From Okeania sp. (GTDB lineage: Bacteria; Cyanobacteriota; Cyanobacteriia; Cyanobacteriales; Microcoleaceae): a stretch of 32,000 nt of DNA. The stretch covers positions 37,960 through 69,959 of the forward strand of contig NZ_JAYKGW010000168.1 in assembly GCF_035285525.1 (NCBI RefSeq). Reading direction: 5' to 3'. Under the pieces are notes generated by a model. The model did no database searches. It had not been told where the DNA came from and worked only from the letters and a program-made list of their open reading frames with translations. The translations under genes were made by a program, and so were the position numbers. This document shows positions 22,837 through 29,607 of the stretch, one piece after another (positions within the stretch are counted from its first letter, which is position 1; every line of letters begins with the position of its first letter).

Positions 22837-25215
22837 TTAGATATCTTCAAAGAGTGGCATATAAGCATTTAATGGAGATTCTAATTCCTCAAGTAATAAA
22901 GCTATTCCGAGTATTCCTTTGTAAAGACTAAAAGGATAATTATGAAGGAAGTCAATATTTTCTAATGCTTTAATAGCTAGTTCTTTACTTTTGATTAACC
23001 AGTATGTTTCTGAGCTATATTTATACAAGTTTAAAACTGAATAAGCAGCTCCAGATAAACCACAGCATAAATCAGAAATTATATAACTATTTCCTAAGAC
23101 ATTAATTGCTGCTTTTTCTGCTAGATTCAAATAGCGATTATTACGGAAATATTTGTCAGCTATTACCCATAAATGAATTAATCCAGCAGTACCATTACAC
23201 CACCAGGGAACATATTCCAAACTTTCCCTTTTTTTACTATTAATTTTCTGTTTCCACTGCATTCCATTCTGACAATTTTCACCCATTTCCGATAATTGTT
23301 CTAGTCTTAATTCTAGAGAATTTGGTAATTCTTGTTTTGTTACTTGACACCAATGTAAAGTTCCATAGAGTAAACCTGCCCATCCATGAGCTAAACCAAG
23401 GTAAGGAAAATTTAAACATTCTCTAATTGGTTTAAAAGTGTCAATTTCTTGCCATATTTCTGATAATATTTTGTTACCTAATTCTAAAATTGCTTGATTT
23501 TCAGGGATAATTTTCATTAGTAATGAGTAACCATTGAGAATCCCGGCTTTACCCATATTTAATTCAATAGAGTCACATTTTATTTGAGATGTAATAACAT
23601 AATTATTTACTGCCTCTTGTAAACAGGTTTCATCTCCCATAGTATGACTAATTATTGCCTGCATAAAATGAATACCTGGTTGATGATAATAAAAAGAAAT
23701 TGGTTTAACTATGTCTTGATTTAAAGACAAATTTTGATTAAAAAATCCCGACTCATTGTGACATTGACTTAAGGCTTGATTATTCCATAAATCTGCAATT
23801 GATAAAAGTTCTGGATTATCCCGAATACAAGATAATCTATAGAGAAAATAAGCTGTTCCTGCTGCACCAAAAACAATGTTTGCTGTGGGCGCTCTATGCA
23901 AATTTGTCAAAGTTTCAGTAGTAAGATTACTACTGATTTGATGAATAATATTGGCTAATTTTTGTCGATTAATATGAATACTAGGAGATAGATTTTTATT
24001 TTCGGAAATTTTTGGTTTTTCTGTGATTTTTTCTAAGTCTTGAACCATTTCTGACAAAGAGAAAAAACGCTCTTGAGGTTTTTTACTTAAAGACTTAAAT
24101 AATACCTTTTCCATTTCTATCCAAGATGATAAATCTTGTGATGAAAAAGATAGGGGAATTTCCTCTTGAATTTGCCGTAACATTTCCTGTTTATCTAAAG
24201 AAAAACGAAGATAATGTTTCCCTGCTAGAAGATAATATAACAAAGCACCAATACAATATTGTTCTGCTTTTTGAGTAGATTTTAGTAAAGGTTTTTTCTG
24301 ACTCCGAGCCAGAGCATATTCAGGCTCAAAATAATATGCCACACCACCAGTACGATAATTATTTTGAGTATCTTTTTCTAATCTGGCTAGACCATAATCA
24401 ATAATTTTAATTCTTCCCACCTCATCAACTAGAATATTCCGAGGATGAATATCAATATGTAGCACTCCTTGACTGTGTAAATGAACATAAGCTTTGACAA
24501 TTTTTATAGCTAAAGATAATAGCTGATTTTTACTTCCAATAATTCCTAATTTTCGAGCTTCTCTTGCCCGACTATTTACATCAATACCAGATACCCATTC
24601 ACTCACAAAATAGGTTTTACTATCAAATTCCCCTTGATGCTCAAGTCGAGGATTAATTTTGCCGTCTAAATGTTGTAAAATATTGATTTCGTGCAAGAGA
24701 GTTTGTTGGGCTTTTTTATCTGTTGAATTTCTGACAATTTTCAAAGCCATTAAATAATTATTAGTATTTCTAACTTGATAAACTTCTACATCTTCATCAG
24801 CTTGGATAATTTTAATAATTTGAAATTGCTGAATATATTCTCCTATTTGATAAGTAGGTTCAATATTTTCTACTGCATCTGAGTTCGCAGGAACTATTAA
24901 ACCTATTTTGATAAAATGATCGACTATGGGTATGGTTTCTTGTAAAAGTTGATAAGCATCTATGGTTTTATTTCTACTAACTTTAACAACTACATCGACA
25001 ATTTTTTGAGGGGATATAAATTCTGTCATTAAATTAGCTGTGGCATTATCAATTGTTTTGGAAGGGATTCTACTACCACGACGACTAATGACATATTCTC
25101 CTTCATTTGTTTCTAGTTGTTGTTGAATATTATTAGGTAATTCAGTAATAGGAGTAATAACTACATCTTTGGGTAAAATATAATTTTGATTGGGGTCAAC
25201 TTTAGATTTATTCAT
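22837..25215 (-). CDS. Ser/Thr protein kinase fused to a LanC-like lanthionine cyclase domain, with no full-length lyase domain (lanthipeptide-synthetase-like)
   Basis: Residue numbers refer to the 804-aa track ORF. Kinase motifs are LMALK (Lys171), HIDIHPRN (Asp267) and IIDYGLA (Asp285). LanC motifs are GLAHGWAG (His622, nt 23386-23388), WWCNGTAG (Cys685, nt 23197-23199) and DLCCGLSG (Cys729-Cys730-Gly, nt 23059-23067). Only about 130 aa precede the kinase domain. The ATG at 25215 (MNKSKVDP...) is preferred to the TTG at 25251. Confidence 0.85.
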   Translation of the reverse strand: MNKSKVDPNQNYILPKDVVITPITELPNNIQQQLETNEGEYVISRRGSRIPSKTIDNATANLMTEFISPQKIVDVVVKVSRNKTIDAYQLLQETIPIVDHFIKIGLIVPANSDAVENIEPTYQIGEYIQQFQIIKIIQADEDVEVYQVRNTNNYLMALKIVRNSTDKKAQQTLLHEINILQHLDGKINPRLEHQGEFDSKTYFVSEWVSGIDVNSRAREARKLGIIGSKNQLLSLAIKIVKAYVHLHSQGVLHIDIHPRNILVDEVGRIKIIDYGLARLEKDTQNNYRTGGVAYYFEPEYALARSQKKPLLKSTQKAEQYCIGALLYYLLAGKHYLRFSLDKQEMLRQIQEEIPLSFSSQDLSSWIEMEKVLFKSLSKKPQERFFSLSEMVQDLEKITEKPKISENKNLSPSIHINRQKLANIIHQISSNLTTETLTNLHRAPTANIVFGAAGTAYFLYRLSCIRDNPELLSIADLWNNQALSQCHNESGFFNQNLSLNQDIVKPISFYYHQPGIHFMQAIISHTMGDETCLQEAVNNYVITSQIKCDSIELNMGKAGILNGYSLLMKIIPENQAILELGNKILSEIWQEIDTFKPIRECLNFPYLGLAHGWAGLLYGTLHWCQVTKQELPNSLELRLEQLSEMGENCQNGMQWKQKINSKKRESLEYVPWWCNGTAGLIHLWVIADKYFRNNRYLNLAEKAAINVLGNSYIISDLCCGLSGAAYSVLNLYKYSSETYWLIKSKELAIKALENIDFLHNYPFSLYKGILGIALLLEELESPLNAYMPLFEDI

Positions 25216-25671
25216 AATTATTGGAAGTAGGAAGTAGAAGGAAATAACCAATTATTTCTGCTCGATAATTGATGGAATTTTTGATAATCATAAATATCTA
25301 TTTAAAAGTGATATTTAGTAATCATAAATAGGTTGTAAAATTTTATAGTAGGGGTTTGGTCTCCAAAGCCTTACACTTATTGTTCGCAAATCATTTAGGA
25401 CTTGCTATTGGTAAGCATTCTGCATCGTCAGCTAACAGCTATCAGCTCCTGAAAAACATCTATAATTTCCGACTATAAATTATATGGGTTAAAAGCTCAG
25501 ATATATAGTTGAAAAGTAGAAGTTGAAGTTGAAAAAGCGCTTGACTTACTTCATTCATTAAAAAAACTAAGAGCTGACTGCTGACTGCTGAATGCTATTA
25601 ATGGTAAGTAATCAGATTTTGAATGTAAATAAAAACACATTTGCTCTAAATATTTAACATATTCAAATTTG

Positions 25672-25810
25672 CTTTAACCATACTTAAAGATGGAAATTTG
25701 GAAGTAGGGAGTAGGAGGAAGTAATCAATTATTTACCCCCTTTCCTTTAACCATACTTAAAGATGGAAATTTGGAAGTAGGGAGTAGGGAGTAGAAGGAA
25801 ATAATCAATT
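25672..25810. repeat. tandem duplication of about 70 nt (CTTTAACCATACTTAAAGATGGAAATTTGGAAGTAGGGAGTAGG...AATCAATT), with a third partial copy at 25221-25255 abutting the kinase-LanC start codon
   Basis: Copies at 25672-25730 and 25745-25810. The motif TTGGAAGTAGGAAGTAGAAGGAAATAACCAATT recurs at 25221-25253. Confidence 0.75.
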
Positions 25811-25997
25811 CCTTTAATTGTATGGTTTGAAAAGTCAAAATATTCGTTATTTCTCTGCAAATTATGGGTTAAAAATGTGAAGTACAATCAACTATTTTTC
25901 CTTGACTTTTTTGAAATAATAGCTGAATATTCAGGAAGCTAAACATTTTAAATACTGTGATTTTACTTCATTTAATATGAAGTTAATTTCTGATAAA

Positions 25998-27161
25998 TTA
26001 CGGCTGAATATTTACTATTGAAGGAATCCAATTAGTTGTATCAATGCCTTCTAAACTTAATCGTTTGAGAGCAAATATTCTCGGTTCTAAATCAGTATTT
26101 TTATTACTTTTAGCTGCAATAATGGCAGATGCTAAACGATTAGTAATCCACAGTCGCCAACTTTCTTTTTCTTGCCAATTTGGTTGATATTTATCCTGGG
26201 GAGGATCTATACCCCAAGACAGTAAACCTCCAGAAGTAATTTCAGCAGTAAAAGGAACTCCTTGAGCAGGTATATTTGTTAAAGCAGATGCTAATTTTTC
26301 GGCTGTATTTTGTAGGTTTTCTAAGGTGTAAAAATAGGCAATAAAATTATCTGGTCGCAGTAAACCACTAATCTTTTTGGCAAATTTTAGAGAGCGAGTT
26401 TCAGTATCAGAAAGAATGGCAATAACTTCTCCCAATATTTCTTTTTGAAATTCTATATTGGTACTGACATAAAGTTTATATCGCCACTGTTTTTTGTCTG
26501 TAGGTGTCTGGTCGTGACGCGATCGCCACAATGACCAATAATCTCCATATTTATTGGTGACTTTTACTGGTTCCCAATGTTTTTCTAATAAATGGTAGTG
26601 TTTTCCATCGGGGTGAAGATGGAGATATTTTACTAGATATTCTGGAGTTGAGAATGCTTGATGTCGTTTAGGAGTCAGGGGAAGTCGGTTATAAAAATAT
26701 AGTCGTGCTGATAGTTTGGTGACATCGGTAATATTCAGTTTTTCGGCGTACTCTATTGCTTTCATGGATAGTTGCGCTAGTTTACTACCGTTATTAGGTG
26801 AATATTTTTCAGGTTCGAGAATACTGTAAGCTTCAGCACCGGAAACAAAACCATTTTCTGTCTGTAATTCTAAGATACTATCTAGCAGCAACTTTTCGAT
26901 TGTGGTGTTTGTATTTTCCCCAAGGGAGGATATAATTTCTTTAGGAATTTTTCCTGGATGATGGAGATTTTGGTAGAGTTTAGCAGTTTGATGACAAATA
27001 GCTTTGATGGTTAAACCTGAATTTTCATTGGGTAGTAAAACGCCAAAAAAATCTGGGTCTTCACGGAGTTGAGAAAGGTTGTTTTGCTCGTTGGGAGTTA
27101 GGTTTTCGTAGGGAACTAATTTGTATTTTTGGTTCGCTCGGAAAATTGTGGTTTGTATCAT
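25998..27161 (-). CDS. hypothetical protein (387 aa) between the peptide gene and the kinase-LanC gene; candidate stand-alone lyase or recognition partner
   Basis: Clean ATG-initiated ORF co-oriented with its neighbours. Conserved-looking blocks are YKLYVS, LLRPDNFIAYFY, GVPFTAEI, LLSWGIDPP and ESWRLWITNRLA. The family cannot be assigned by eye, so the function is inferred from context only. Confidence 0.6.
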   Translation of the reverse strand: MIQTTIFRANQKYKLVPYENLTPNEQNNLSQLREDPDFFGVLLPNENSGLTIKAICHQTAKLYQNLHHPGKIPKEIISSLGENTNTTIEKLLLDSILELQTENGFVSGAEAYSILEPEKYSPNNGSKLAQLSMKAIEYAEKLNITDVTKLSARLYFYNRLPLTPKRHQAFSTPEYLVKYLHLHPDGKHYHLLEKHWEPVKVTNKYGDYWSLWRSRHDQTPTDKKQWRYKLYVSTNIEFQKEILGEVIAILSDTETRSLKFAKKISGLLRPDNFIAYFYTLENLQNTAEKLASALTNIPAQGVPFTAEITSGGLLSWGIDPPQDKYQPNWQEKESWRLWITNRLASAIIAAKSNKNTDLEPRIFALKRLSLEGIDTTNWIPSIVNIQP

Positions 27162-27294
27162 GTTGAAGTTGGTTATACCAGGCGCGATAAATGTTTACAA
27201 ATGGTAGAAGCAGAGGCAGAGAAACCGGGTTTGTCTTAAATGCCCTGAAATAATAATATGACCTCCAACAAACCCGGTTTTTTTATAACACTTC

Positions 27295-27380
27295 GGACTT
27301 ACGAAAACATGAAAATATAGACCATTTGTAGGGGCGAATGGCATTCGCCCATACTATCTATAGCGGTACTGCGTAAGTCT
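27295..27380. mobile_element. MITE-like element (CGGACTTACG...CTGCGTAAGTCT) carrying the palindrome GGGCGAATGGCATTCGCCC
   Basis: Family termini plus an 8-bp-stem hairpin. It lies between the peptide gene stop (27432) and the 387-aa gene start (27161). Confidence 0.55.
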
Positions 27381-27431
27381 TGATAATATGCTAGGAGTTG
27401 GCAGACTAAACCCCTACAAAATAGCGATCGC

Positions 27432-27710
27432 TTATGCAGCTAATGCCATTTTTAGTTGTTCTTGTAATTTAGACATTAAGTCATCTTGAGAGGGATAGAG
27501 CAAACTGCCTAAAACTTCCTTGAGTTCATTCTCCATAGGTGCGCCAACAGTCACGCTACAAGTGCAGGCAGTACAAGATAGATAGTTAGCTTCTACACCA
27601 ACAGTAGCACTGCAAGTACAATCAGTACAAGATAGATAGTTAGCATCAACTCCAGATCGGTTTGCTGCTTGAGGCAGAATATTAACCATTAAGTCACGAA
27701 CTTTAAGCAT
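27432..27710 (-). CDS. candidate RiPP precursor peptide with two tandem Cys/Ser/Thr-rich modules
   Basis: 92-aa ORF with an AAGGA Shine-Dalgarno-like motif 8 nt upstream of the ATG. Residues 23-40 (ANYLSCTDCTCSATVGVE) and 41-58 (ANYLSCTACTCSVTVGAP) form an 18-aa tandem repeat (nt 27591-27644 and 27537-27590). The modules differ by four synonymous codon changes while every Cys, Ser and Thr is retained. It lies first in a co-oriented set with the kinase-LanC gene. Confidence 0.75.
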   Translation of the reverse strand: MLKVRDLMVNILPQAANRSGVDANYLSCTDCTCSATVGVEANYLSCTACTCSVTVGAPMENELKEVLGSLLYPSQDDLMSKLQEQLKMALAA

Positions 27711-27769
27711 TATTTTGTCCTTAATAATTGAATTATGTTGTTTCCTGAAACTGGTTAATTAAAATGTTT

Positions 27770-27869
27770 AGGACTGACGCAAAGAAACCCGGTTTCTAGG
27801 CTAAATCATTGTTTTGAACAAGAAACATCCACGAGAAACCCGGTTTCTGGGTTCTGCTGCGTAAATCCT
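27770..27869. mobile_element. MITE-like element (AGGACTGACGCA...CTGCGTAAATCCT) containing two AGAAACCCGGTTTCT dyads
   Basis: Family termini. The internal dyads are at 27783-27797 and 27834-27848. It lies 60 nt upstream of the peptide gene start. Confidence 0.55.
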
Positions 27870-27936
27870 GATGTTTTTTCTTGACTTCGTTTCATTACAA
27901 ATAATCATAGTTCGGCTTTTTGGAAATAGATAAAAT

Positions 27937-28108
27937 GTGAAGTAAACTTTCACCTTCAATTTTATCAGAAACCGGGTTTTTGGGAAACAAAAGTAAGTAT
28001 AGTAAGAGTTCTAAATACAAACCCGGTTTCTACCCTTGACAAATAATAATGTGACATTTCTTTTCACCCTCAGCATCAAACCAGAAAATAGGTGAAAATA
28101 TAATTCAC
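27937..28108. promoter_or_regulatory. three GTGA(A/C)-N7-TTCAC dyads in the divergent intergenic region
   Basis: GTGAAGTAAACTTTCAC at 27937-27953, GTGACATTTCTTTTCAC at 28051-28067 and GTGAAAATATAATTCAC at 28092-28108. All three have identical half-site spacing. A regulatory role is inferred only. Confidence 0.35.
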
Positions 28109-28296: not shown

Positions 28297-29607
28297 ATGA
28301 AAAAAGAAGTATTTCAACATATTTTTCCCTCTAAATTAACAGAGGATGAATTACAAACACTAAAGTTGTTCTTAGATGGTCATAAAGATAAAGACATTGC
28401 TGATTCCATGAATTGGGATAGGTCAAATATTCCTAGAAAATTAAAAGCGATCGCTTTAAAATTTGACTATCCTAAAAACTCTGACTCTAGTTTTGTCAGA
28501 GAGTTTTTAGTAGAAATATTCAGCAAACATCAACCCCACTTAGTTTGTCAGAAATTGAAGGATAAATATCTTGCTAGTCCTAATAAAATTATAATTCCTG
28601 GTAGACCAGAGAAATTAGATTCTCCTTTTTATATAGAACGTAATCGAATTAGACGATGTTCTATTGAATCAGAATGTTATGAAAATATAGAAGTTCCTGA
28701 TTGTTTAATCAGAATCAAAGGACCGAAACAAATGGGTAAAACTTCTCTATGAACGCGGATAGAAGGTCATGCAATTAAAAACAAATATGAATCTATCTAT
28801 CTCAGATTTGATAAACTAATTGAACCAACAAATATTAAAAATATTAATGATTTTCTCAAAGCATTCAATAAAAATATTAAAAGTAGGTTTCCTGATGCTC
28901 CTAACTGGAATAGATGGGACGACCAAAATGCCAAAATATCTTGCACTGAAGAAATTGAAGCTCTCTTATATCATTTAGATAAAGTGGTAGTTTTAATCTT
29001 AGATGAAGTGGATGAAATTTTTAACTATCCAGAAATATCTAGAGACTTTTTTATCATGTTAAGAAGTTGGTATGAGGCTAGCAACCATAAAGAAATTTGG
29101 GAAAATTTACGAATGGTAATTGCTGATTCTACAGAATATCATGGCAAATTAGATATTCATCTTTCTCCTTTTAATGTTGGTTTACCTATAGAATTAAAAG
29201 AGTTTACACAAGAGCAAGTTACTCAGTTAGTATACTTACATCAATTACCAATAAAAGTAGTAAATAGTTTGATGTCTATAGTCGGAGGTCATCCTTATTT
29301 AATCAGATTAGGTTTATATAAAATGTCGGCAGATGAATTAACAATTGAAAAACTCTTAAAATATGCTGCGACTGAAAGTGGAATTTATCAACAACATTTA
29401 AGTAGACATTTAGAAACTTTGTCTAATCAAAAAAATATTAAAGCAGTTTTTAGCCAAATATTAAAAGCTAATTCACCTCTACGTTTACCCAATAAAAATA
29501 GAGAATTACATCAATTAGAAGCTATGGGATTAATTACAATTAAAGCTGATTTTGCTGAACCTTGTTGTAAATTATACCGAAAATATTTTCAGGAACGTCT
29601 ACTTTAA
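28297..29607 (+). pseudogene. LuxR/GerE-type HTH plus AAA-like (STAND-like) ATPase, interrupted by a single in-frame TGA at 28750-28752
   Basis: The N-terminus (LTEDELQTLKLFLDGHKDKDIADSMNWDRSNIPRKLKAIALKF) fits a LuxR-type HTH. Walker A GPKQMGKTSL is immediately followed by TGA. The same frame stays open through Walker B (VVVLILDEVDE) to 29607; track ORFs 28297-28752 and 28984-29607 are both in frame 1. The PDSPFYIER...IRIKGPKQMGKTS pattern resembles cyanobacterial AAA-like domain proteins. Confidence 0.65.

Follow-up and report, generated by a model that had tools for sequence, protein, structure and literature searches.

The window analyzed here, a stretch of 32,000 nucleotides from the cyanobacterium Okeania sp. 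(contig NZ_JAYKGW010000168.1), contains a set of three open reading frames (ORFs) that are all co-oriented on the minus strand (Table 1). The first encodes a 387-aa protein, referred to here as LY, which is the subject of this work as a probable lyase of a lanthionine-forming system; the second encodes a neighboring kinase-LanC protein, referred to as KC; and the third encodes a Cys/Ser/Thr-rich peptide of 92 aa, the probable precursor. The KC ORF is listed as 22837–25251, and the start that is conserved in its family is the ATG at 25215, which gives a protein of 792 aa. A first-pass annotation, made from the DNA letters alone, had picked out five conserved-looking blocks in LY, namely YKLYVS (residues 228–233), RPDNFIAYFY (residues 269–278), GVPFTAE (residues 301–307), LLSWGIDPP (residues 313–321), and ESWRLWITNRLA (residues 333–344). 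All five are present and are the most conserved blocks of the LY family across 150 representatives. Because of this conservation, and because an identical protein is already deposited as a "hypothetical protein" of Okeania sp., LY is a genuine gene and not an accidental reading frame.

Table 1. Genes, domains, and other features of the LY locus, in window coordinates
Feature	Position	Strand	Basis or remark
LY gene, 387 aa	25998–27161	(-)	ATG-started ORF; putative N-terminal RRE-like domain and predicted HopA1-fold phospho-Ser/Thr lyase body
LY residues 1–95, putative RRE-like domain	26877–27161	(-)	Domain-only model, Foldseek, hhalign; homologous to the N-terminal stretch of KC
LY residues 96–387, predicted HopA1-like lyase body	26001–26876	(-)	Conservation, hhalign to SpvC, CaoY spacing
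YKLYVS block, residues 228–233	26463–26480	(-)	Predicted counterpart of SpvC "DKFHIS" (K104-x-H106)
LKFAK...LRPDNFIAYFY, residues 258–278	26328–26390	(-)	Contains K259, R269, and Y276
KC gene, 792 aa	22837–25215	(-)	Pfam, NCBIfam, 71-member alignment
KC N-terminal stretch, ~70–130 residues	24826–25215	(-)	Homologous to the N-terminal stretch of LY
KC LanC domain	22840–23868	(-)	
Probable precursor peptide, 92 aa, Cys/Ser/Thr-rich	27432–27710	(-)	ORF list and upstream ORFs of relatives
Core repeats of the 92-aa ORF	27597–27644 and 27543–27590	(-)	
Repeat-rich insertion of ~790 bp between LY and KC	25222–26016	no strand	Direct repeats; blastn against the Trichodesmium locus L006
LuxR-type helix-turn-helix (HTH) + AAA_35 (STAND-like) gene in two ORFs	28297–29607	(+), divergent	Pfam

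LY had been described as an orphan, which is true of its annotation and not of its distribution. The protein has no match in Pfam or NCBIfam (June 2026) at E ≤ 1, none among the PADLOC models, and none in the PDB by phmmer, but it belongs to a large family spread over many phyla and is not confined to this locus. Among clusters at 90% identity, a word-indexed search picked up 1,061 relatives, all of them full length (~390–410 aa), 40–44% identical, annotated as "hypothetical," and devoid of any Pfam or NCBIfam assignment, with hosts in Chloroflexota, Acidobacteriota, Armatimonadota, Streptomyces, and Methylomirabilis. When 1.84 billion representatives were searched exhaustively with a profile, 1,581, 1,439, and 1,099 clusters at 50% identity were obtained for thresholds of E ≤ 1e-3, 1e-10, and 1e-30, respectively, and the best 150 profile matches are all stand-alone proteins of 325–507 aa. 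With one genome considered per species (185,579 species), an LY relative is encoded in 267 stretches; the hosts are mostly Acidobacteriota, joined by Chloroflexota, Planctomycetota, Gemmatimonadota, Armatimonadota, Eremiobacterota, Nitrospiraceae, Rhodocyclaceae, Bacillus, and Cyanobacteria.

Relatives are also encoded in two metagenome-assembled genomes (MAGs) labeled Nitrososphaerales, for which the archaeal origin is that of the MAG labels alone. In each of these (L061, 1862–2599; L063, 7214–7951), the LY-like and KC genes overlap, and a 245-aa ORF resembles two fused tandem precursor units, with two leader motifs and two C-terminal elements. Plasmid-borne copies of the cassette exist as well, and one RefSeq plasmid copy of LY is annotated as "hypothetical protein." On the conjugative plasmid p1 of Bacillus paramycoides (NZ_CP152428, L087, 1–12400), the genes that flank the cassette encode two S8 family peptidases and a 595-aa hypothetical protein, to which the window has no equivalent; these S8 enzymes could be the leader peptidases in that lineage.

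Members of the LY family are encoded beside a kinase-LanC gene with few departures. In three contexts that were checked by hand (Streptomyces afghaniensis, a Chloroflexi MAG, and a closer relative), a gene for a protein of ~800 aa with Pkinase and LANC_like domains lies just downstream. Across the 80 fetched loci that have at least 600 bp of sequence after the LY-type gene, a KC gene is found downstream on the same strand in 79, at a distance of no more than 400 nt in 77, with a median gap of 24 nt. The lone exception is a Crocosphaera locus, in which the KC gene lies 5.7 kb away on the other strand. Co-occurrence with kinase-LanC genes had been proposed in the first-pass annotation as a check on the role of LY, and it is borne out by this near-obligate linkage. 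A fourth conserved gene, such as one for a protease, transporter, or regulator, did not emerge from clustering of the flanking ORFs of 83 loci, which returned only generic Ser/Thr kinases and shadow ORFs. Within the 32-kb window, likewise, there is no protease or exporter, and the remainder is housekeeping.

KC consists of an N-terminal module (residues ~1–130) that is homologous to the N-terminal domain of LY, a Pkinase domain (residues ~144–392), and a LanC domain (residues ~450–792). The kinase matches Pfam Pkinase (PF00069) with an E value of 1e-28, and the LanC domain is full length, covering positions 10–346 of the 350 in LANC_like (E 7.5e-31). A match to APH is confined to a short stretch inside the kinase core (residues 260–290; E 4.7e-5, 23.7 bits against a cut-off of 23.2). 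Among 71 family members, the kinase motifs ALK, HxDxHPxN, IDFG, and EPEY are conserved, with K159, D255, N260, and D273 as the corresponding kinase residues of KC, as are the LanC motifs AHGWAG, WCNG(S/T)AG, and LCCGL, with H610, C673, C717, and C718 as the LanC residues. The LCCGL motif (residues 716–720) stands where canonical LanC proteins and LanL have CHG, such that the third ligand is a Cys. KC is therefore predicted to possess the zinc ligands that class III enzymes lack, in a Cys3 site like that of ProcM-type "CCG" cyclases, a motif that has been associated with substrate promiscuity (PMC13509491).

In NCBIfam, KC matches LanL best (NF038150; E 1.6e-40), at 139 bits against a cut-off of 650, and the alignment begins only at position 229 of the 851 in the model. 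KC also has no match to Pfam HopA1, RamC_N, or VRP3. Because the LanL alignment starts so late and no lyase family is matched, KC is, judged by its sequence, without the lyase domain of class III and IV enzymes, in agreement with the earlier claim that this kinase-cyclase has no lyase of its own.

Of 81 loci, at least 56 have a precursor-like ORF directly upstream of the LY-type gene, separated from it by a median of 93 nt; this count is a lower bound, as variant motifs were seen by eye. The encoded proteins begin with the motif M-x-F-[KR]-[VI]-[KR]-[DE]-L-M-[IV]-x-[VI]-[LT]-P (FKVKDLMIxVLP-type), continue into hypervariable Cys/Ser/Thr-rich repeats (e.g. CTGCT, CTGTT, and CGPCS), and in many cases end in a helix-Pro-helix element, L..LK.QL...LA.VE......PQT.E.V..LE.KL..AL.EL. 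They are typically 90–280 aa long, with a median of 156 aa and a median of 9 Cys, and they have no family match in Pfam or NCBIfam. The 92-aa ORF of the window is composed of the leader MLKVRDLMVNILP, two core repeats of the form ANYLSCT(D/A)CTCS(A/V)TVG, and a C-terminal helical element (...LYPSQDDLMSKLQEQLKMAL), in which a shortened helix-Pro-helix is recognizable. To go by sequence, the combination of conserved termini with a hypervariable Cys/Ser/Thr core gives these proteins the look of lanthipeptide substrates. Their length, their very short N-terminal leader, and their conserved C-terminal element are unusual. Downstream of the KC gene of the Trichodesmium locus, a second ORF (L006, 5552–5740) starts with the leader motif MMLKVQDLMVNIL but lacks a Cys-rich core, and it could be a precursor copy that has decayed.

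The length of the precursors and their conserved C-terminal helical domain, along with the absence of a conserved protease or transporter nearby, would also suit a protein-modification, signaling, or defense module whose Cys-rich coiled-coil protein acts as a partner, structural or regulatory, instead of as a substrate. The kinase does resemble defense-associated kinases, if only generically. No PADLOC model matches LY or the precursor, however, the LanC catalytic motifs are intact, and a hypervariable core of this composition between conserved termini is a hallmark of substrates in the biosynthesis of peptides that are synthesized ribosomally and modified post-translationally (RiPPs). On the logic of the operon, we consider such a module most improbable.

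An AlphaFold2 model of LY, built on 46 homologues, has a mean pLDDT (the predicted score of the local distance difference test) of 89.7 and a predicted template modeling (pTM) score of 0.88. When this model was compared with the PDB using Foldseek, ranks 1–24 were all occupied by structures with the phospho-Ser/Thr lyase fold (probability 0.99–1.00, E 2e-6 to 9e-3). These include HopA1 (4rsw/4rsx; E 2e-6, TM score of 0.62 on the target), LxmY within the lexapeptide dehydratase LxmKY (9dk1/9dk3), the lyase-bearing class III/IV synthetases ThurKC, SalKC, PneKC, and CuvL, and the enzymes SpvC, VirA, and OspF. The model thus suggests that LY has the α/β lyase fold shared by OspF/SpvC, HopA1, LanKC/LanL, and LanY. 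In Pfam scans of single homologues of LY under a permissive threshold, no families recurred other than HopA1 and RamC_N, the latter being the lyase domain of class III enzymes. Both appeared as weak matches: HopA1 in 4 of 46 members (best E 3.7e-4) and in 10 of 119 (best E 1.8e-4), and RamC_N in 4 of 46 and 8 of 119 (best E 8.4e-4).

Profile searches of the PDB sequences returned only a GGDEF protein, 3ezu (E 0.03–0.06), and 1woz (E 0.19); because no GGDEF structure is among the Foldseek matches, both were taken as probable chance matches. The 3ezu alignment places LLRPDKxVAYF…HGVPFTA (LY residues ~257–325, window ~26187–26393) on a GGDEF strand-helix-strand.

A lyase fold does not by itself fix the target. 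The effector HopA1, which has the closest solved fold, is itself without an established biochemical activity, kinases are the targets of OspF-type enzymes, and the sub-threshold sequence similarity leaves room for altered chemistry. LY could accordingly be a lyase-fold enzyme that irreversibly removes phosphate from the kinase itself or another phosphoprotein, as OspF and HopAI1 do with mitogen-activated protein (MAP) kinases, or that tailors the precursor in some other way. Such a role would sit poorly with strict operon linkage to a precursor rich in Ser/Thr and Cys and to a LanC cyclase, which depends on dehydro-amino acids, and the flanks contain no other conserved candidate for a lyase. 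We therefore regard it as very unlikely on the logic of the operon.

A search for canonical LanKC/LanL lyase domains in the plasmid collection (tblastn with KC as the query) yielded only three more lyase-less family members and generic kinases. For profile-profile comparison, the SpvC/OspF family was used instead of RamC_N/HopA1 sequences; SpvC was taken from plasmid pSLT, and a 43-member SpvC/OspF alignment was built. Two hhalign runs, of the LY family against SpvC alone and against the SpvC/OspF profile, both align YK229-L-Y231-VS with DK104-F-H106-IS and F-K259 with W-K136. In 150 representatives of the LY family at no more than 50% identity, K229, Y231, K259, R269, D271, P303, S334, and R336 are invariant, and Y276 is conserved in at least 90%. 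K259 is the probable general base, equivalent to K136 of SpvC, K219 of CaoY, and K94 of ThurKC, and K229 is predicted from the weak hhalign alignments to be the equivalent of SpvC K104. R269 is the predicted counterpart of SpvC R148 and CaoY R229, where the R148 equivalence comes from spacing and secondary structure only, and Y276 is that of SpvC Y158 and CaoY Y236. By motif order only, D319 may correspond to SpvC D201 and R336 to SpvC R213. The predicted active site would then comprise K229, Y231, K259, R269, Y276, D319, and R336.

The class V lyase CaoY provides a biochemical reference for this set of residues. K219 of CaoY is the base, the K219A substitution abolishes elimination, and K219, R229, and Y236 correspond to K136, R148, and Y158 of SpvC (PMC9486802). 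CaoY has no counterpart of His106 and carries an Arg in place of K104 (PMC9486802). The spacing of K259, R269, and Y276 in LY (10 + 7 residues) is identical to that of K219, R229, and Y236 in CaoY (PMC9486802). Of the residues that mark the phospho-Ser/Thr lyase superfamily, LY appears to have the base Lys, the Lys/Arg at the K104 position, and the phosphate-binding Arg, and to be without the His. Because the base Lys, the K104-type Lys, the Arg, and the Tyr are kept and the acid His is replaced by Tyr, the residue pattern of LY would be intermediate between the LanKC/LanL and LanY types.

The N-terminal quarter of LY, for which the first-pass annotation gave no reading, forms a domain of its own with a weak resemblance to a RiPP recognition element (RRE), the winged-helix-like type of domain that takes up a leader peptide as a β-strand. 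Residues 1–100 modeled alone fold independently with a pLDDT of 93, in the order β-β-α-α-β-β-α-α. The best Foldseek matches of this domain are TigE, TglHI, LynD, ThcOx, McbBCD, MccB, and PqqD, with E values of 0.07–1.5 and query-normalized TM scores (TMq) of 0.45–0.58; no match reached E ≤ 1e-3, and the domain has no match to Pfam PqqD. TigE is also the first non-lyase match of the full-length LY model. The domain is like the PqqD-like RREs of LynD, MccB, McbB, TglI, and ThcOx in that these are its best structural matches and in its place at the N terminus of a RiPP tailoring enzyme; it differs from them in lacking the canonical order of three strands followed by three helices. With low confidence, and on the strength of the model, we describe it as RRE-like. 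A homologous stretch begins KC, and hhalign of KC residues 11–78 (70 sequences) with LY residues 6–78 gave a probability of 72.6% and an E value of 3.2e-5. Lanthipeptide enzymes of classes II–V are reported to be without an identifiable RRE (PMC10604976).

A recognition-like domain joined to a lyase fold in which the canonical acid His is replaced by Tyr raises the question of whether LY is an enzyme at all. It could instead be a non-catalytic adaptor or scaffold, with an RRE-like domain and a degenerate lyase fold, that presents the precursor to KC while elimination takes place elsewhere, e.g. at the kinase site as in class II LanM; a class V lyase is known to stabilize its kinase partner as well (PMC9486802; PMC12141560). 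However, the base Lys, the K104-type Lys, and two Arg residues are invariant over ~150 clusters at no more than 50% identity, which would be unexpected for a pseudoenzyme, LanY enzymes function without the His (PMC9486802), and the kinase of KC is an ordinary Pkinase, a type not known to eliminate phosphate. Because residues of the catalytic type are invariant, we think a purely structural role unlikely.

The observed fold, residue conservation, near-obligate linkage, absence of a cis-encoded lyase in KC, and precursor architecture lead us to propose that LY is most probably the trans-acting phospho-Ser/Thr lyase subunit of a split lanthionine synthetase that is a hybrid of classes IV and V. 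Several results weigh against this proposal. LY itself has no match to Pfam HopA1 (PF17914), RamC_N, or VRP3 even at E ≤ 10, and thus does not reach the gathering score of PF17914, and LY-family profiles found no lyase among the PDB sequences. Because LY matches neither the HopA1 nor the RamC_N model and these PDB searches were without a lyase, LY is a sister family within the lyase fold and not a member of Pfam HopA1. The resemblance to HopA1 suggested by the first-pass annotation therefore holds at the level of fold, and in the weak matches of homologues, but not as family membership. The hhalign probabilities are low (1.9% with E 0.027 for SpvC alone, and 15.6% with E 0.0017 for the SpvC/OspF profile), such that the residue mapping rests on weak alignments together with the fold and the order of the motifs. 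The general-acid His of SpvC, LanKC, and LanL (H106 in SpvC, H67 in ThurKC) is replaced by the invariant Tyr231, and LY and a cyanobacterial relative, P0003, have Asn at position 272, where at least 90% of the family have Lys.

The operon of the window is also interrupted by the ~790-bp insertion between LY and KC, which contains three copies of TTGGAAGTAGG(A/G)AGTAG…AGGAA.TAA and a 65-nt unit that is repeated twice, and co-expression at this locus is consequently not assured. In the orthologous Trichodesmium MAG locus, which is 84–88% identical to the Okeania window at the nucleotide level, the insertion is absent and the gap between LY and KC is 9 nt (family median 24 nt). Both ORFs are intact in Okeania despite the insertion.

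From the proposed role we infer the catalytic steps, the roles of single residues, the formation of a complex, and the element bound by each N-terminal domain as follows. The Pkinase domain of KC would phosphorylate Ser and Thr residues in the core repeats of the 92-aa precursor, and LY would β-eliminate the phosphate to give dehydroalanine and dehydrobutyrine. In this step, K259 would abstract the α-proton, K229 and R269/R336 would hold the carbonyl and the phosphate, and Y231 would stand at the place of the acid His106 of SpvC and of its LanKC counterpart. The zinc-dependent LanC domain would then add Cys thiols to form (methyl)lanthionine rings, with C673, C717, and C718 as the predicted ligands and H610 as the predicted acid. 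Each enzyme would probably dock through its own N-terminal domain, either on the FKVKDLMIxVLP motif or on the C-terminal helix-Pro-helix element.

A broader proposal, which we make only tentatively and hold to be doubtful, is that the cassette represents a seventh lanthionine-synthetase architecture, in which an RRE-bearing lyase works with an RRE-bearing KC. Its substrates would be whole proteins of ~90–280 aa and not short secreted peptides, with multi-ring Cys/Thr repeats placed before a C-terminal helix-Pro-helix that serves in oligomerization or recognition, and it would operate without a dedicated protease or exporter. The products would be widespread intracellular or cell-associated lanthionine-cross-linked proteins of Acidobacteriota, Chloroflexota, Cyanobacteria, Bacillus, and possibly ammonia-oxidizing archaea.

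Beyond the cassette, a LuxR-type HTH gene with an AAA_35 region lies divergently. Positions 4–47 and 129–331 of the AAA_35 profile fall on two ORFs, 28297–28752 and 28984–29607, with ~80 profile positions missing and a 232-bp gap between the ORFs, and the gene may be a disrupted, possibly frameshifted, regulator. Its link to the cassette is uncertain; in another locus (L004), the corresponding divergent place is taken by a GerE + NB-ARC/AAA_16 gene. The palindromic 12-mer GAAACCGGGTTT has 10 matches in the window against 0.15 expected, located at 299–311 and within 27221–28030, and 8 of the 10 flank the precursor gene (27221–28030). These sites include spaced inverted pairs (27221/27270 and 27968/28019) and near-palindromic sites that match both strands (27784–27796 and 27835–27847), and they look like small elements of the miniature inverted-repeat transposable element (MITE) or iterated-palindrome kind. 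Promoter and terminator scans of the locus gave nothing above shuffled expectation.

At present, six classes of lanthipeptide synthetase are counted (PMC13509491, August 2026). None of these pairs a Pkinase-LanC fusion with a HopA1-fold lyase encoded on its own, and a search of the open literature to mid-2026, with subscription-only literature outside its scope, found no description of this architecture. In RODEO-type mining, any protein with Pkinase and LanC domains is put into class III/IV, and precursors above 120 aa are dropped (PMC7268733), and this classing, together with the 120-aa limit, would hide the LY/KC family. In a 2020 RODEO survey, only LanM enzymes were reported in cyanobacteria. 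If the proposed function is correct, more than 1,000 sequence clusters labeled "hypothetical protein" would gain a function, and many biosynthetic loci that existing tools misfile or miss would come into view in phyla where RiPP mining has been poor, including cyanobacteria and possibly archaea. The cassette would also offer a natural split system for the coordination of kinase, lyase, and cyclase activities, and a way into how the lyase domain was gained or lost in the evolution of lanthipeptide synthetases.

Outside lanthipeptide biosynthesis, LY is closest to OspF, SpvC, and HopAI1 (VRP3, PF03536) and to HopA1, with which it shares the predicted fold and can be aligned at the motifs K-x-[H/Y]-[I/V]-S and [W/F]-K. 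OspF, SpvC, and HopAI1 are secreted virulence effectors that act on host MAP kinases, whereas LY is encoded in a RiPP-like operon of free-living bacteria; LY has no significant sequence similarity to OspF/SpvC and has Tyr for His106. The system recalls the class II enzyme ProcM and its prochlorosins in the "CCG" cyclase motif and in its hypervariable multi-Cys cores, but the LanM-type dehydration and the Nif11/NHLP leaders of that system are both absent here. Class III enzymes differ in having no zinc ligands. The class VI enzyme LanKCb of streptococci, as described in PMC10676316, is a single polypeptide of a kinase with truncated lyase and cyclase domains that acts on miniature peptides. Measured against that description, the cassette stands apart from class VI in its full-length LanC domain, its separate lyase, and its long precursors.

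The closest comparisons are with classes IV and V. Like LanL enzymes (VenL, CuvL; NF038150), KC has a Pkinase-type kinase fused to a LanC domain with zinc ligands, with a third Cys instead of His, and it would share in the same chemistry of phosphorylation, elimination, and cyclization. It differs from LanL, in which lyase, kinase, and LanC form one polypeptide, in that the lyase is encoded by a separate gene, in its score (139 against 650 bits), in having CCG and not CHG, and in its RRE-like N terminus. Like LanY enzymes (CaoY, LxmY, ThoD/TvaD; PF17914), LY is a stand-alone protein of predicted HopA1 fold that is encoded beside a kinase and would eliminate phosphate in trans; LxmY is among its best structural matches, the Lys/Arg/Tyr spacing about the base is identical, and the SpvC-type His is absent. 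It differs from LanY in having no PF17914 match (only ~8% of homologues match weakly), in keeping Lys, and not the Arg of LanY, at the K104 position, in the invariant Tyr at the His position, and in its additional RRE-like N-terminal domain. The partner differs as well, being a Pkinase-LanC fusion and not the APH-type (PF01636) LanK of the class V LanK/LanY/LanX systems, which have no LanC; here cyclization would be the task of LanC. A hybrid of class IV and class V logic, as first suggested from the DNA alone, fits this combination of a Pkinase-type kinase fused to a zinc-type LanC with a stand-alone HopA1-fold lyase. Overall, the system is like a class IV synthetase from which the lyase has been split off or, equally, like a class V dehydratase in which a Pkinase-LanC protein has replaced the APH-type kinase and the LanC-free cyclase.

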